Positions 41,098 through 47,349 of a DNA stretch of 64,000 bases are shown here, piece by piece. Each line of letters begins with the position of its first letter. Position 1 is the stretch's first letter. The DNA is from an uncultured Pseudomonadota bacterium (GTDB lineage Bacteria > Vulcanimicrobiota > Vulcanimicrobiia > Eremiobacterales > Eremiobacteraceae): contig CAVTNB010000003.1 in NCBI GenBank assembly GCA_963736005.1, positions 288,001 to 352,000 of the forward strand, written 5' to 3'. The position numbers and the translations under genes are program-made. Under the pieces are notes generated by a model that was not told the DNA's origin, ran no database searches, and saw only the letters and a program-made list of their open reading frames with translations.

Positions 41098-43539
41098 ATG
41101 GACGTTGCCAAGACGACGACAACCACACTCCTCTCTCCCCTCACAAAGCGGGAGCAAGAAGTGTTGGAGCTTATGGCATTCGGACTTGCCAACAAAGAGA
41201 TCGCCGACAAACTGTCATTGAGCCGGCGCACCGTCGAATCGCACATCGATCGATTGCTTGGGAAACTCAACGCGCCGACCCGAGCACGTGCGGTCGTCGA
41301 GGCCGGACGGGCTGGTCTGCTTGGCGGTCAGACCCTGAAGAACGCCGCCTATTCGGCAAACGACCGTCCTAACAACCTGCCGTTGCAGCTGACGACGCTT
41401 TTGGGTCGCGAGCAAGATCTGGTTGAGGCGAAGTCCTTACTTGAAGCCCATCGCCTCGTCACCATGTCGGGATCGGGTGGCGTCGGCAAGACGCGGCTTG
41501 CGTTGCGGGTAGGCGTCGATCTCCTTGAGCAATATCCCAACGGCGCCTGGTTGTGTGATTTTTCCCCAATCTCAGATCCGGGGCTTGTTTCCAGCGCCGT
41601 AGCAAAAGCGTTGGTTGTTCGCGAGCGACAAGATCGTCTGCTTGTCGAGTCTATCGTCGACAGCTTAAAGCGCAAACAAGCCTTACTGATTTTTGACAAT
41701 TGCGAACACGTCCTGGATGCGACTGCGGAACTCGTCGACGCAATCTTGCATAACTGCCCCAACATCCGAATTCTCGCGACCTCGCGCCAAGCGTTGGGCA
41801 TCGTAGGGGAGCTGGTATATCGGGTTCGCTCACTTGCAGTGCCCGACTCAACCGAAGGTTTGAAAGCCGACGAGGGCTTGCGCTATGGAGCCATTGCTCT
41901 TTTTGTCGACCGAACGCAGGCGTCGGATGCCGGCTTTGCTTTCACCGACGAGTACGCACCCATCATTGCTGAGATCTGTTCTCGCTTGGACGGTATTCCA
42001 CTGGCCATTGAACTGGCAGCGACGAGAAGCAAGGTCATCAACATTCAGAGCTTAGCCCGGAGTCTGGACGATCGCTTCAAGGTGCTGACGACAGGGGGTC
42101 GCACGGCTCTGCCTCGCCATAAGACTTTGGCCGCGCTCATCAGTTGGAGCTACGACCTGCTCGCCGCTCACGAGCAGGCGCTCTTTATGCGCTTAGGCAT
42201 CTTTGCCGGAGGCTTCAGTCTGGCTGCGGCTCGAGTGGTCTGCTGCGGCGATGGTCTCGATGAGATCGACATTCTGGATCTGCTGTCGTCATTGACCGAC
42301 AAGTCGTTGGTCGTCGCTGACACCGGCGGCGAGCACGAACGCTATCGCCTGCTCGAATCCACACGCGCCTATGCGTTGGAGAAGCTCGCGGCTGCAGGTG
42401 ACCGCGAGCGGCTGGCGCGCCGTCACGCCGAGTATTTCCGCGACCAGGCGCAAGAGTCTGACAAACGTTACGATACGGAATTGATTGGACGGCTCGCGAA
42501 CGCGGCTGGGGAACTAGACAACTACCGAGCCGCATTGGAGTGGTCGGTTGCCGACGGGCACGATGCGGTGCTGGGCGGTGTCGTCGCTGGGTCGCTGGAG
42601 CGGCTCTGGCTTGACGGCGGCCTAGCGGCGGAGGGACGTTATTGGATCGAACGTGCGCAAGCGGGCCTTAGCGAATCAGCGCATCCACAGCCGGCGGCCC
42701 GGCTGTGGCGCGCGCTGACCCGCCTGTCCTCAGGCACGCGCAAGCGCGACTACGCGGAGCGAGCCTTCACGCTGTACCAGTCTGTGGGCGACGGCCATGG
42801 GGCGGCCCGGGCGCTCCTCGAGCTTGGGCATGCTCTCTATCAAATGGGCCGCTTCGAGGAATCAAGTGAGGCGGTCGCACGCGCGCTTGCGGCGCTGCAA
42901 AAATACGGGGATAAACGAGGAGTGGCTCGGTGCCTTGGCCGTCAGGCGGACATCTATCGGTCTCGCGGCGATGTCGCTACGGGGCGCGAGCTGTATACCC
43001 AGGCGCTTGAGGCATTCAAGGCCCTTGGAGACGAGGACGGGACAACCATGGTGTTGGCAAATCTCGCGGAGGCCGAATTCAGAGAGGATCATGTTGAGCA
43101 AGCGCTGCGCTTAGCGAGCGAGGCCCTGGAGATTAACGCTCGTGGGAAGAACGCGACGAACTTGGCGCTTGAATCCGTCAACAGCGCTGCGTATTGCATT
43201 GCGCTGGGAAAGCTGGATCGCGCACGTGACGTCGCGCGCGAGGGACTGCGTTGGGCACGACAAGCGCAAGATGCACTAAATATCGCACTCGCATTGCAGC
43301 ATTTTGCGCTGCTCGGGGCGTTGCACCGAGAAGTGGATATTGCGGCGCGGCTCATCGGTTACGTCAATGTGCAGCTCAAAGAGCTCGGGTCGGAGCGTGA
43401 GTACACCGAAAAGTGGGGCTACGAGAAGCTGATGACCGGACTACACGAGCGACTGAGTGAGGCCGAGATAGAAAAGCTCGCGGCCGAAGGCGCGGTGTGG
43501 TCGGAAGATCAGGCGATCGAAGAAGCACTTAAGGTCTAG
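41098..43539 (+). CDS. LuxR-HTH + STAND ATPase + TPR regulator
   Basis: LTKREQEVL...NKEIA; GSGGVGKTRL; DNCEH; LDGIPLAIELAA; TPR tail. Confidence 0.93.
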   Translation: MDVAKTTTTTLLSPLTKREQEVLELMAFGLANKEIADKLSLSRRTVESHIDRLLGKLNAPTRARAVVEAGRAGLLGGQTLKNAAYSANDRPNNLPLQLTTLLGREQDLVEAKSLLEAHRLVTMSGSGGVGKTRLALRVGVDLLEQYPNGAWLCDFSPISDPGLVSSAVAKALVVRERQDRLLVESIVDSLKRKQALLIFDNCEHVLDATAELVDAILHNCPNIRILATSRQALGIVGELVYRVRSLAVPDSTEGLKADEGLRYGAIALFVDRTQASDAGFAFTDEYAPIIAEICSRLDGIPLAIELAATRSKVINIQSLARSLDDRFKVLTTGGRTALPRHKTLAALISWSYDLLAAHEQALFMRLGIFAGGFSLAAARVVCCGDGLDEIDILDLLSSLTDKSLVVADTGGEHERYRLLESTRAYALEKLAAAGDRERLARRHAEYFRDQAQESDKRYDTELIGRLANAAGELDNYRAALEWSVADGHDAVLGGVVAGSLERLWLDGGLAAEGRYWIERAQAGLSESAHPQPAARLWRALTRLSSGTRKRDYAERAFTLYQSVGDGHGAARALLELGHALYQMGRFEESSEAVARALAALQKYGDKRGVARCLGRQADIYRSRGDVATGRELYTQALEAFKALGDEDGTTMVLANLAEAEFREDHVEQALRLASEALEINARGKNATNLALESVNSAAYCIALGKLDRARDVAREGLRWARQAQDALNIALALQHFALLGALHREVDIAARLIGYVNVQLKELGSEREYTEKWGYEKLMTGLHERLSEAEIEKLAAEGAVWSEDQAIEEALKV

Positions 43540-43715
43540 ACTCGCAAGCAGATATCAGCAAGACTAGTTCTTTATGTCGAGGGCAGCACGAATAGTAGGG
43601 TGTTCCCAAAACCGCCGCATTTTGAACGCAAGTTTATCTACCCAGACGTTTTGACCGGGGTATAGTGGAACGCGGGAAAATGGACAACTCTTGACGCCAG
43701 TAACCTCGTTCATTC

Positions 43716-43898
43716 AAACGTCCGGTGCCTGCGAACCAACGTCCGATGCCCCTGCAATTGCGATCAATTGGTTGCACGTAGCGAACCGGTGAAACGTCCG
43801 ACGCACACGCTTTTTCCCGATAGAGCGCTCCTTTTATGGCACTTCACCCTTGCTACGGCATTGCGTCTGCAAACGCAATCAAACGGCCAAACGTCCGG
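43716..43898 (-). repeat. four AACGTCCG subterminal boxes
   Basis: Copies at 43716, 43738, 43792 and 43889. Confidence 0.85.
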
Positions 43899-43941
43899 CT
43901 CGATGCCCAGTACAGAGCGTAACTAATACCTGAAAGGCGAA

Positions 43942-44136
43942 CTAACTCCGCGCCTTGGCGCACTCAGGGCACGTGTTGTAAACACCAGGTCCTTGCTGCC
44001 CCCGCATCATCTTCCACTGCGCAGCAGTTCCTGGAGTAATCTTCGTTGTGCAGCGACCGGCAACGTGGGACTCGGATGGGCACCCACCACATCGGCATGC
44101 GACGTCTCCCTTTTGATCGATTCCGAATTTAATCAT
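43942..44136 (-). CDS. small Cys-rich putative Zn-finger protein
   Basis: AGAGGA RBS; CRCGGC..H...C...CPEC in 64 aa. Confidence 0.55.
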   Translation of the reverse strand: MIKFGIDQKGDVACRCGGCPSESHVAGRCTTKITPGTAAQWKMMRGQQGPGVYNTCPECAKARS

Positions 44137-44429
44137 ATCTCATTCCTCTTTTAAACGCTCCGTAAAAACAAAAGGCGAAACGACCTCTTTGCGGCCATTT
44201 CGCCTCGGCTTCCACACCGTTACAAGCGTGGGCTACGGAGTGCTGTGTTGGTTCGCGGGATCTCTGATTGCACCTTGCTTTTTCTTGTACCATCGGGTGA
44301 GTATTGGATGTTGCTTTAGCCGATGTGATCACCCACGGCTGGCGTCAGAACTAGACGGTTGTAATTCGCAAGCGCGACAAACGTCATCTTTTTTGAGCCG
44401 AAAAAGATGACTCTAAGCGGTGATCAACC

Positions 44430-45038
44430 CTAGCTGGGCAGGAGCACCAAGTCTGCCGCTTCCTCAGCATCTTTGAGGAGCGTCTTGCGCGGCGTGCCTA
44501 TCCGCGCACGCACGGTCAGGCCACGAGCAAAATCCGTAACTTGGATCGCGCGCACGGCTACCGGAAAGTCAGGCGGAATGTCCCCCGCACAGATCCCGTC
44601 GCGGAAACGGCGCTCCACCAGCGCCACGGCGCCCGCGACCGTACTCTGCAGGAACCGCCGAACCTCAGCGTCGTTCAACAGCGGCGCGACGCACACCAGA
44701 AGGCAGCCCCGGGCGGACCCTTTCTCGGTCGCGCTTGCGACGGCGTACCTCAGAAAGCTTGCGAGCGAGTCGCGCAGAGCCTGCGGCGCGAGGAGTGCCT
44801 TCGCGGCGAGAGCGCCCTTCCTCTCGGCGTACGCGTGGAGGACACGCAAGAATATCTTCCGCTTGGACCCAAAAACTGAATACAGACTCGGCCGCCCGAC
44901 TCCCATCCCGGCGACGAGATCGTCGATCGTCACTCCGTCGTAGCCTTTCAACCAGAACACCTGGGTCGCTTTTTCCAGCGCGTCCCTCTCGTCGAAGCTG
45001 CGCGGTCGTCCACGTGGCCTGGCGGTATTTTGAAACAT
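44430..45038 (-). CDS. TetR family regulator
   Basis: RGRPRSFD, FW.KGY, GVGRPSLYSVFGSK, RGCL. Confidence 0.93.
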   Translation of the reverse strand: MFQNTARPRGRPRSFDERDALEKATQVFWLKGYDGVTIDDLVAGMGVGRPSLYSVFGSKRKIFLRVLHAYAERKGALAAKALLAPQALRDSLASFLRYAVASATEKGSARGCLLVCVAPLLNDAEVRRFLQSTVAGAVALVERRFRDGICAGDIPPDFPVAVRAIQVTDFARGLTVRARIGTPRKTLLKDAEEAADLVLLPS

Positions 45039-45168
45039 TTGGTTCGAAACTCCTTGTTCTTGGTCATCCAATCCATTATAGTACGGAAAGGTTCGAAATT
45101 GGCAAGTCGACCCCTGGCCTCGCGGGGGCCTCACGACCCGACCTTTCCCCTTCACCACGGAGACGCCC

Positions 45169-46143
45169 ATGGAACATTCAATCGCTCTCGTCACCGGCAC
45201 CACCTCCGGACTTGGACATGCGGCAGCCCGCATGCTAGCCGCGGAGGGCTACCGCGAGGTCATCGTCACCGGGCGCAGCCTGGCCCGGGTACAGGAAACG
45301 GCAGCTGGGCTCGCAGCTGAGACCAAGACGCAGGTTTTTACACCGCTAGAGCTGGATCTGGACTCGCCGTCTAGCGTTCAATCCGCACTCGCCGAGCTCG
45401 TCAAGCGAGGTCGGCCGGTCGATTTCCTACTGCTAAATGCAGGGATGGTCGGAGGTAAGAAGCGCGTGGTCACTGCGGCGGGCGTCGAGGCTTCTCAGGC
45501 CCCGCTAATCGGCCATCATCAACTGACTGTTGGGTTGCTCCGCGCCAACCTGCTGAGCCCCGACGCGCGGATTGTTATCGCCGGCGCGGAACCTGCCCGA
45601 GGGGACGTGCCCCTGTTCAGCTTCACCGACGTGGCGGCCTTCGCGGCCAAACGCCACCAGGGTGACCGAACCGCCGCTATTGAAGCCCTGCTGCGCAACG
45701 GGCCGAACGTGAAGTACGTGCCCAACCGGGCGTATGCCGATGCGAAGCTCATCATCGCTTGGTGGGTCGCGGCGCTGGCGCGCCGGCTACCCTCCGGCAT
45801 GGCCGTATACGCCGTCTCGCCCGGTAGCGCGCCCAACACCAAGGCGGTGCGTAACGCTGGCCCGGCCTTGAAGTGGCTGATGATTCCGCTGGTGAAGCTC
45901 ATCCCCGGCATGTCTCAGACGCCGGAGACCGCGGCTCGTCGCTACCTCCAGGCATCGGAGTTCGGAACCGACGTGTCGGGGCAATTCTTCGCCTCGGCGC
46001 CCAAGAAGCTCATCGGCCCAATTGAGGCAATGCGCCACCCACACTTGCACGATCGCGCCAACCAGGAAGCCGCGTGGCAGGCCGTCGTCAAGGTCTCTGG
46101 CGTCGACTTTTCTTATCCCGCATCCTTGAGCGCGTTGTCCTGA
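45169..46143 (+). CDS. SDR family oxidoreductase
   Basis: TGTTSGLG, LNAG, YADAK catalytic motif. Confidence 0.92.
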   Translation: MEHSIALVTGTTSGLGHAAARMLAAEGYREVIVTGRSLARVQETAAGLAAETKTQVFTPLELDLDSPSSVQSALAELVKRGRPVDFLLLNAGMVGGKKRVVTAAGVEASQAPLIGHHQLTVGLLRANLLSPDARIVIAGAEPARGDVPLFSFTDVAAFAAKRHQGDRTAAIEALLRNGPNVKYVPNRAYADAKLIIAWWVAALARRLPSGMAVYAVSPGSAPNTKAVRNAGPALKWLMIPLVKLIPGMSQTPETAARRYLQASEFGTDVSGQFFASAPKKLIGPIEAMRHPHLHDRANQEAAWQAVVKVSGVDFSYPASLSALS

Positions 46144-46190
46144 AGGAGCGCCGGTTGGCGGACGGATACTGGTGGCAACGGGTTGGACCA

Positions 46191-46662
46191 CCGGACGTTG
46201 GCCGCGGTGACGAATCAAAGCCGAATGACCGGACGTTTGTCGGCGGATCCAAAACCGGAAGTTGGGGCTGCTTGTGTAGTATCCCAAGCGAAAAGACACT
46301 ATTGCCATTAGGCACTGAAACCCGGACGTTGCCCCGTTTTATGGCGTTTTGTAGATTGCATTGCACATTGCAACCCTTGAATCGCGGCAAAGCCCCGGGA
46401 TTCACCGGGGGAAGGCGTATGCCCCGGACGTTATTCAGACGCTTGATAACCATTCGTATGATCGCGATTGCAAGTACCGGACGTTTGATTGATCGTCTCC
46501 TGAATAATCTCGACAATTCGTAACTCAATCGCCTAGCTTGAAATTGAATTCAAAATCGACCGCAAGCCCGCAAATATACAATTGTGGGCAATGCGATCAT
46601 CGTAAGCAATTAAGTAATCAAATCGGGAGGCCCGGACGTTAGCAGCTGGGCACCGGACGTTT
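46191..46662 (+). repeat. seven CCGGACGTT subterminal boxes
   Basis: Copies at 46191, 46229, 46322, 46424, 46477, 46632 and 46653. Confidence 0.9.
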
Positions 46663-46797
46663 GGCAGATCAGCCCGACTGGCGTCAGAAGTTGTCCAATT
46701 TCCCGCGCTCCACTATACCCCCCAGACGTTCGACCGCGGAGGAGAAATCGTTGGCGGTTTATAATTAGCCACTAAACCATTAGGAGCTGAACTACTC

Positions 46798-47349
46798 ATG
46801 AAAACCACTCCCCGGACGGACGGCGAAGCACCGACCGACATGGTGTTGTTGCGCCGTGGCGTTGCCGGAATTTGTGACCGCTTTAGCGGCAGCGATTACG
46901 ACACCATGAACACATTTCTCACGCTGAAGCGCACCGCTGCAGACCTTGAAAATCTTTCGACTGAGTACTGCAAGCAGGGCGACGTTTCGCCCGGGCGTTT
47001 GGGCGTGCTCATGGTTTTAAACGCCAATCCTGAAAAGCAAATACCTCTTAGCGAAATTGGCCAATACCTGGTTGTGTCGCGGCCGAACATTACCGGTCTC
47101 ATCGACGGCCTGGTCGACGAAGGTCTCGTCAAGCGCATCAATCACCCCGAGGATAGGCGCATGATCCTCGCGCAACTCACCCCTCAGGGGCGAGACTTTA
47201 TGCGAAAATTCGTACCATTCCATTTGCGAGTGGTCAGTAGCGCGATGGCCGGGTTGACAAGAAACGAAAAGCGCCAACTCGTATCTCTCCTCGACAAGCT
47301 TCGCCTCCATCTACACGGCGTTAAGATCCCACATCTAGAGGAAGCATAA
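46798..47349 (+). CDS. MarR family regulator
   Basis: VSRPNITGLIDGL...GLVKR..HPEDRR....LT..G. Confidence 0.93.
   Translation: MKTTPRTDGEAPTDMVLLRRGVAGICDRFSGSDYDTMNTFLTLKRTAADLENLSTEYCKQGDVSPGRLGVLMVLNANPEKQIPLSEIGQYLVVSRPNITGLIDGLVDEGLVKRINHPEDRRMILAQLTPQGRDFMRKFVPFHLRVVSSAMAGLTRNEKRQLVSLLDKLRLHLHGVKIPHLEEA

Follow-up and report, generated by a model that had tools for sequence, protein, structure and literature searches.

The 64,000-nucleotide stretch of DNA analysed here (the window) spans positions 288001-352000 of contig C3 in the assembly of an uncultured member of the Eremiobacterota (G000; 2.84 Mb, six contigs, 84% complete). Ahead of a marR-hlyD-emrB-type operon it contains a 3,065-bp element (43657-46721) with 45-nt terminal inverted repeats (TIRs) at both ends and no transposase inside, which is flanked by an apparent target site duplication (TSD) and carries genes for a TetR-family regulator and a short-chain dehydrogenase/reductase (SDR), as well as a small orphan open reading frame (ORF). 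The element and its surroundings comprise the following features:

43600..43644, plus strand: older end of type B (GTGTTCCCAAAA...TCTACCC), taken from comparison with relatives to be a right end that faces the insertion site
43642..43656, no strand: TSD copy 1, CCAGACGTTTTGACC, read directly, with one substitution and one indel relative to copy 2
43657..43701, plus strand: left TIR, type A (inverted-repeat pair, end-pattern search, alignment A1)
43702..43900, minus strand: left arm with four subterminal repeats (A)CCGGACGTT(T), reverse-complemented (motif search)
43942..44136, minus strand: 64-aa Cys-rich orphan ORF, putatively coding (ORF list)
44327..44350, plus strand: internal partial copy of the right-arm/right-TIR junction, 21/24 identical to 46667-46689 (local alignment)
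44430..45041, minus strand: TetR-family regulator, cargo (PF00440, E 1.5e-11)
44437..46155, no strand: horizontally spread TetR-SDR module (nucleotide comparison with relatives)
45169..46143, plus strand: SDR, cargo, divergent from the tetR gene (PF00106, E 1.8e-16)
46176..46676, plus strand: right arm with eight subterminal repeats, seven exact CCGGACGTT and one CCGGAAGTT (motif search)
46677..46721, minus strand: right TIR, type A (inverted-repeat pair, end-pattern search, alignment A1)
46722..46735, no strand: TSD copy 2, CCAGACGTTCGACC (direct reading, flank comparison)
46736..46797, plus strand: conserved target flank, the marR promoter region (comparison with relatives)
46798..47349, plus strand: MarR-family regulator, first gene of the operon (PF12802, E 1.4e-11)

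The two TIRs match at 41/45 positions (91% complementary), and inverted-repeat detection recovered the four mismatches and the sequences just as they had been written in a first-pass annotation of this DNA. When a 32-nt end pattern was searched with up to three mismatches, the two TIRs were its sole copies in the window (0/100 shuffles) and again in the whole assembly. The flanking direct repeats measure 15 nt on the left and 14 nt on the right and differ as that annotation had described; its caution that the exact boundaries are ambiguous at the C-runs also holds, the G/C runs allowing readings of 14-16 nt. Both ends of the element begin with GGGG, and the 5 nt flanking it differ between the left and right sides. 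The long non-coding arms claimed earlier are present, but they are not featureless, as they bear arrays of a repeat, ACCGGACGTT(T), with 12 copies in the two arms. The stricter 9-mer CCGGACGTT occurs ten times in the window, nine of these inside the element (expected 0.87, largest shuffle 3), where the left arm has two reverse-complemented copies and the right arm seven forward ones; over the whole host genome, clusters of this motif are found in this element only. An Rfam search of the region returned no match.

The insertion site is defined by the marR promoter. A TATAAT (-10) box at 46760-46765 is situated 38 nt from the TIR tip and a conserved TAAACCATTAGG is found at 46773-46784. Comparison with relatives, whose genomes, contigs and loci are designated here by G, C and L numbers, delimits the conserved part of the site to the promoter and TATAATTAGCCACTAAACCATTAGGAGC ahead of marR, the latter being single in the genome; the conserved palindromes of the flank may constitute the MarR operator. 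None of the statements made here depends on an unpublished genome. Ends of the same type as those of the window (type A) were surveyed in 12 non-redundant sources, yielding 13 ends, with L044 and L045 left out as they have the same sequence as G009. Nine of the 13 face a -10-like box, with the tip exactly 38 nt away in eight, while in the ninth a TATATA is 38 nt and a TATAAT 40 nt from the tip. Between tip and box the 38 bases differ freely among genera, the first 14 being the duplicated bases, and at several sites a TTGAC-type -35 box directly follows these 14. The TIR pattern is present in 5/401 genomes of the phylum, all from the window's own family, at three loci in the species-genome collection and at nine metagenome loci, and type-A ends number one or two per genome, at one defined site. 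The marR promoter occurs without any such end, as an empty site, in G003 (same genus) and G012, while in G004 it directly follows a lone type-B end (GTGTTCCCAAAA...TCTACCCC, 45 nt). The possibility that the TIRs are independent dispersed repeats is thus not borne out, their one site being either empty or occupied by other cargo in relatives. No ends were found by blastn in a plasmid collection, nor was either end type found in viral contigs. Public reads were represented by contigs of soil runs, in small shares only; these cover the TetR-SDR module from many organisms, and none bridges either junction by 31 letters or joins across the element.

The ends of the element belong to a small family of ends restricted to one taxonomic family of the phylum. 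A 45-nt bipartite type-B motif is located 37-40 nt upstream of the marR-type -10 box in G004, G007, G014, G016, G022 and G009. Among 260 genomes of the class, exact copies were restricted to the window's own family, and one-mismatch matches outside the family were about as frequent as those of a control. At the same position G002, which belongs to the same genus as the host, has an insert of 1,268 bp that encodes a MarR-family protein and a cupin and lies between perfect 14-nt copies of GCTACAGCACCGAC (up to 16 nt). Its right end is of type A and its left end is the GTGTTCCCAA... motif in inverted orientation, and the type-B motif is therefore itself an element end. The element in G009 measures 9,094 bp, has ends of type A on the left and type B on the right, and lies between the flanks CGTTCCTAAGGGC and CGTTCCTAAAGGGC (13/14 nt). 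G390 has a facing pair of type-B ends separated by 14 nt. The order type-B end, 14-15-mer, left end of a subsequent element is seen in the window, L042 and G009. This stacking of ends at the marR site indicates that insertions recur there and that older ends are displaced from the promoter. Locus L041, from a near-identical strain, shares 584/600 nt (97.3%) with the window in the flank beside the site and only 40/45 in the TIR; its interior is unrelated, encoding a CAAX protease, DUF5069, SpoIIE and a P-type ATPase, and an arm segment is displaced by approximately 1.8 kb of other genes. A search for the TIR with different cargo, as the first-pass annotation had proposed, accordingly found it in G002, G009 and L041. 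The ORFs adjoining the TIRs differ between loci and no gene is common to any two elements, the related elements carrying regulators, oxidoreductases, a cupin, and toxin-like or defence-like genes.

Two further arrangements were observed around these sites. The inner half of the type-B motif, GGTGTTCCCAAAAGTGCCGCATTT, occurs in arrays in L063 (G022:C1, ~890.3-892.0 kb), L064 7278-7857 (G007:C2) and L036 3471-3928 (G009:C11), where same-direction copies lie 2-25 nt after the stop codons of several unrelated small genes beside the marR-type site. These cassette-like arrays may be stacked one-gene elements without outer ends, or GGTGTTCCCAAAAGTGCCGCATTT may act as a 3' signal in its own right. G009 (L038 and L017; G009:C11 at ~345,594, minus strand) has an end of a third type, GGGGTATAGTAGAGGCCATCCGG..., after a type-B end and a 15-nt spacer. 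It is on the opposite strand, 1.2 kb from the G009 type-A left end, so that two back-to-back insertion sites are present with an SDR gene between them.

Cas1 is encoded in 2/32 genomes of the window's taxonomic family, G007 and G020. The G007 protein is a 447-aa ORF (PF01867, E 1.9e-33) with a Cys-rich, basic C-terminal extension, and adjoins a divergent 1003-aa ORF; none of the 12 ORFs scanned around it has a match to a cas2 family and no CRISPR-like array was seen. Its closest solved relative is 6opm_A (E 4.1e-18), a code which appears in the available part of the paper on the M. mazei casposase (PMC6977970). Among the 120 matches listed for the 1003-aa ORF, at least 16 carry PF03175 and at least 18 carry PF00136. 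One of these homologues is a protein of Henriciella marina, a species named as a bacterial casposon host in the text available (PMC4046053), and this protein may or may not be the polymerase of that casposon. On the precomputed Pfam labels of its homologues and on motifs recognised by eye, the 1003-aa ORF is predicted to be a family-B-like DNA polymerase. The two genes lie in an element read as follows from its TIRs and flanks:

G007:C3:448924-465366 (loci L105, L107), no strand: casposon with Cas1 and polymerase, 16,443 bp

This 16.4-kb element is apparently an intact casposon in an Eremiobacterota genome. Its TIRs are approximately 85 nt long and its flanking repeat, GCGCACAACGCT, is 12 nt, or 14 nt if the ends are GGG/CCC, and up to 18 nt through the G/C runs; a second left end, that of a tandem element, occurs directly after the shared repeat. 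Several of its large ORFs (786, 377, 243 and 216 aa) have no Pfam match. Cas1 proteins of 430-490 aa from soil metagenomes form a large clade (214 protein clusters at E <=1e-10, including P0121-P0240) of which the G007 Cas1 is a member; source names in the clade include Eremiobacteraeota, Candidatus Cybelea, Dormibacteraeota and Gemmatimonadaceae. All members are annotated as CRISPR-associated and many may be casposases.

The G007 casposon and the window element share a common end plan. In alignment A1 the TIRs of both comprise GGGGT..., CTG(A/G)CGC, AAACGTCCGGT and AACGTCCGG; those of the casposon hold AAACGTCCGGT...AACGTCCGGT, and its right 3 kb includes nine forward copies of the 9-mer. The ACCGGACGTT(T) motif is present in 12 copies in the window element and in 15 in the casposon ends and the tandem arm, reverse-complemented on the left and forward on the right in both, with an identical motif context. 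Ends and subterminal repeats are thus held in common with an element encoding Cas1 and PolB, as expected of a non-autonomous derivative. Genome-wide, the 9-mer is in clear excess over a reversed control in G007 (56 vs 32) and G009 (57 vs 32), in milder excess in G020 (37 vs 21) and without excess in G002 (31 vs 39) and G022 (29 vs 30). Clusters of it accompany further ends in G007 and G009, and in G007 such ends and repeat clusters occur at other loci without Cas1 or PolB; no clear TIRs accompany the clusters at G007:C2, G007:C5 and G009:C16, which are possibly remnants. Polymerase remnants also accompany type-A and type-B elements. At the marR site of G007, where the gene after the type-B end is a MarR, a truncated polymerase-like ORF located ~0.9 kb from that end aligns with residues 472-769 of the G007 polymerase at 30% identity (E 7.5e-33), and a tblastn search placed a C-terminal polymerase remnant (58% over 145 aa) inside the G009 element bounded by type-A and type-B ends.

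In the available text of the casposon papers, TIRs of 25-602 nt are reported, with a median of 56 (PMC4046053), together with TSDs of a median of 15 nt (14 bp in M. mazei) that overlap the TIRs, site-specific insertion for which flanking sequence is required, tandem elements parted by one shared TSD, solo TIRs, intergenic insertion in bacteria and casposon ends with a 3'-terminal C (PMC4046053, PMC4779613, PMC6977970). The window element resembles casposons of bacterial family 3 and of M. mazei (family 2) in its TIRs of tens of nucleotides, its 45 nt falling inside the published range, in a duplication of ~14-15 nt overlapping with the G/C ends (window 15/14 nt, G002 a perfect 14 nt, G009 13/14 nt), in its single intergenic site with apparent flank dependence, in tandem stacking with a shared duplication (window, L042, G009 and G390), in the occurrence of solo TIRs and in the 3'-terminal C. 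It differs in that neither cas1, nor a family-B polymerase gene, nor any other casposon gene is found among its ORFs, which are confined to the TetR-SDR pair and the orphan ORF, in that left and right ends of the related elements can differ in subtype (G002, G009), and in that its host phylum and marR-promoter target are missing from the consulted parts of the casposon papers. The ends, subterminal repeats, duplication length, site specificity and tandem stacking are features of casposons, which are driven by Cas1, and not of a DDE transposon.

With a probability of about 0.78, we consider the window element to derive from a casposon, to be non-autonomous and to carry a TetR-SDR module that has spread horizontally. 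The earlier proposal of a non-autonomous mini-element that had captured a regulator-enzyme module is supported. The element would retain what a casposase needs in cis, namely 45-nt TIRs ending in a 3'-C and arms dense with ACCGGACGTT, the arrays of which are putative casposase-binding sites, and would carry the TetR-SDR module and the small orphan ORF in place of the missing cas1 and polB. Its integration, presumably by a casposase, would have involved a staggered attack on the two strands 14 nt apart, with gap fill-in then yielding the flanking duplication, at a site fixed relative to the marR promoter, with the tip 38 nt upstream of the -10 box and just upstream of the -35 region. The promoter/operator flank may be what the integrase recognises, because published casposases need 15-30 bp beside the duplication, according to the part of the source available (PMC6977970). 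An older related element would have been inserted earlier, its end surviving at 43600-43644, with newer insertions displacing older ones away from the promoter. As the host assembly is without Cas1, the element is probably now immobile, or stranded.

Several observations weigh against this assignment. Among the five genomes with type-A ends (G000, G002, G009, G285 and G358), none contains Cas1 (PF01867), and tblastn with the G007 Cas1 and both G007 polymerase-like proteins gave no match in G000; in the absence of these genes from the 84%-complete host genome, no cognate enzyme is shown for the type-A and type-B ends, nor a cognate casposase in the same cell. The intact G007 element has a different TIR subtype and a different target, and shares no nucleotide similarity with the window element apart from the ends, while the 20 kb examined around the Cas1-PolB locus of G020 contain neither the 9-mer nor resolvable TIRs. 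The polymerase assignment has its own weak points, since the Pfam match of the 1003-aa ORF itself is below threshold (PF03175, E 0.007), its exonuclease and polymerase B/C motifs were seen by eye only and it has no sequence match in the PDB. Complete two-ended elements are furthermore few (window, G002 and G009), most type-A and type-B ends being solo, with no partner within 10-48 kb in G285, L041, G022 and G007. Finally, the internal partial copy of the TIR shows that the element was rearranged in place. This copy, also registered among the window repeats as family D14, breaks off after 13 nt of the TIR and has an alignment score of 31, which none of 500 shuffles reached (mean 16.1, maximum 28).

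The last of these points leads to the alternative that survives best, to which we would give a little less than an even chance, namely that a full-size casposon, or two stacked ones, decayed where the element now lies, losing cas1 and polB by deletion and gaining TetR-SDR by recombination, without the segment ever having moved as a 3-kb unit. The position of the junction copy, just left of a TetR terminator hairpin (~44383-44411), hints at an older, shorter element onto which the TetR-SDR module and the present right arm were added. The sharp borders of the TetR-SDR module, which is found elsewhere without these ends, the decayed polymerase remnants in G007 and G009, the imperfect duplication and TIRs of the window, and the near-identical flanks of L041 around a different interior and a displaced arm segment are all in keeping with decay in place. 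The 1.27-kb insert of G002, however, has a perfect 14-nt repeat and no casposon gene and by its look is a recent insertion of a small unit, which argues that small units do move, and G007, with its intact casposon, has other ends and repeat clusters without Cas1 or PolB. Between the arrival of a 3-kb unit moved in trans and the in-place remainder of a larger casposon, the balance is about even.

Far less probable is a mobile insertion cassette of the DDE family (Tn3-like, IS1202/ISTde1-like, IS4-like or Tn7-like) that was moved in trans and resembles casposons by coincidence. Insertion sequence (IS) derivatives consisting of cargo only are a known kind and GGGG ends occur in the Tn3 family, but Tn3 and Tn7 generate duplications of 5 bp as opposed to the 14 nt seen here, a length that to our knowledge fits no familiar IS family. 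The larger ORFs of the window element and of the elements or islands in G009, G285, L041, L039, L040, L042, L043, G022, G007 and G002 matched only cargo and IS3-type insertions in Pfam, with IS3-type rve genes inside two islands, L039 and G007. The three IS3-like copies examined (G007, G002 and L039) were discarded as mobilizers, since each is an ordinary insertion with TG... inverted repeats of its own. Neither the Tn3 DDE family (PF01526) nor DDE_Tnp_1 is present in G000, G002, G009, G285 and G004, and the rve family is absent from the window's genome and yields just two matches in five genomes, in G002 and G285, both elsewhere in the genome. The Tn3 family and its TIME derivatives were rejected on the absence of PF01526 from five genomes and on the differing 5 nt either side of the element. 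The ISTde1 group of the IS1202 family makes direct repeats, which the source puts at 15-17 bp in its abstract and at 16-17 bp in its text, but the ends of this family begin with TGT (bioRxiv 10.1101/2022.12.17.520857); it was rejected on the GGGG ends of the window element and the lack of rve in G000. The array of 10-mer repeats and the end plan, moreover, also bound an element with Cas1 and PolB.

Least probable of all is an island exchanged by a tyrosine or serine site-specific recombinase, with the 14-nt repeat as att core and the ends as recombinase-binding sites: the single site per genome beside conserved sequence and the facing ends across a short spacer do resemble a recombination site, and tyrosine recombinase genes occur in all five genomes searched and so do not discriminate, but the repeat is wholly different between hosts and (nearly) the same on both sides in the window, G002 and G009, which marks it as a target duplication rather than a common core, the 14-nt spacer far exceeds the overlap regions of such recombinases, and there is no recombinase gene in any of these three complete elements.

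The contents of the element, given earlier as a Cys-rich microprotein, a divergent TetR/SDR pair and no transposase, were verified by the ORF list and by Pfam, which detected no transposase family among them. The regulator has the N-terminal TetR helix-turn-helix domain (PF00440, 44.3 bits, cut-off 24). The SDR has an adh_short domain (PF00106, 60.6 bits, cut-off 26.6), the match of which is limited to residues 5-96, so that the catalytic part is divergent. For the 64-aa Cys-rich ORF, neither Pfam nor a homologue search of ~5.8 billion proteins 35-112 aa long gave a match, and tblastn found nothing in the related loci examined. The TetR-SDR module occurs in 5/40 relatives searched, at identities of 92% (G022), 88% (G007), 85% (G030), 83% (G034) and 82% (G036); three of these belong to another taxonomic family, and in all five the module is found in unrelated contexts, without arms or inverted ends, rather than in synteny with marR. 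Its left border carries a conserved CTGACGCCGCATTTCGACGCCGT in L019 and L023 (G022:C5, G034:C2) and adjoins tRNA-like sequence in two cases; an octamer at this border, CTGACGCC, also ends the type-A TIR, which may be coincidence. To the left of the insertion site, window positions 41098-43539 encode an 813-aa LuxR-HTH/NB-ARC/TPR (STAND-type) regulator, of a family represented in the relatives searched by up to ~7 paralogues in one genome, with nucleotide identities of 65-81%.

Mobile insertion cassettes and derivatives resembling miniature inverted-repeat transposable elements (MITEs), such as MIC231 and the Tn3-derived TIMEs, lack a transposase, carry passenger genes and are presumed to move in trans. 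The window element is like them in being transposase-less, in its ends of an autonomous element and in its passenger genes; theirs, in contrast, are DDE-derived with duplications of 3-12 bp, whereas here the autonomous relatives encode Cas1 and PolB and 14 nt are duplicated. Tn7 at attTn7 and Tn7-like islands similarly insert at a fixed distance from a conserved gene-side sequence and accumulate at the same site, where old copies decay, but Tn7 has a 5-bp duplication, TGT ends and TnsABCD, and no rve is found in the window's genome. A parallel between casposons and Tn7 is drawn in the available text of PMC4046053 and PMC4779613. CRISPR spacer acquisition is alike in the staggered attack by a Cas1-family enzyme beside a conserved leader, in one duplication per event and in the displacement of older inserts; it is unlike in that the inserts here are kilobase-sized with TIRs, the 14-nt unit is not conserved in sequence, and neither cas2 nor effector genes are present. 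Casposons are defined throughout by cas1 and polB in the available parts of the papers (PMC4046053, PMC4779613, PMC6977970). No report of cargo-only or non-autonomous casposons was found in the literature searched, which left aside most subscription journals and supplements, and no paper on casposons in Eremiobacterota was found in it. Titles and abstracts yielded no relevant paper on miniature inverted-repeat casposons, a 2023 review mentions neither non-autonomous elements nor MITEs, and the literature on 14-bp target site duplications concerned eukaryotic retroelements only.

Casposons are rare and mostly archaeal, and their Cas1 integrase is held to be ancestral to CRISPR adaptation. If the assignment made here is true, a cargo-only derivative shows that casposon ends are sufficient in cis and that a casposase can spread ordinary accessory genes, while stacks of end, 14-mer and end arise from insertions that recur at a single leader-like site; the proposed route from casposons to CRISPR arrays would thereby become testable in natural material. 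The soil-bacterial clade of 430-490-aa Cas1 proteins would then consist of likely casposases. It is tentatively suggested, at somewhat less than even odds, that soil-bacterial casposases mobilise arbitrary cargo with casposon ends, that their repeated promoter-proximal insertion duplicates a 14-nt unit beside a leader-like flank, and that the stacks upstream of marR in this Eremiobacterota family may be a present-day counterpart of the transition proposed between casposons and CRISPR arrays, in which Cas1 would repeatedly capture foreign DNA beside a leader without the genes of the element itself, as well as a new route of gene-cassette exchange.

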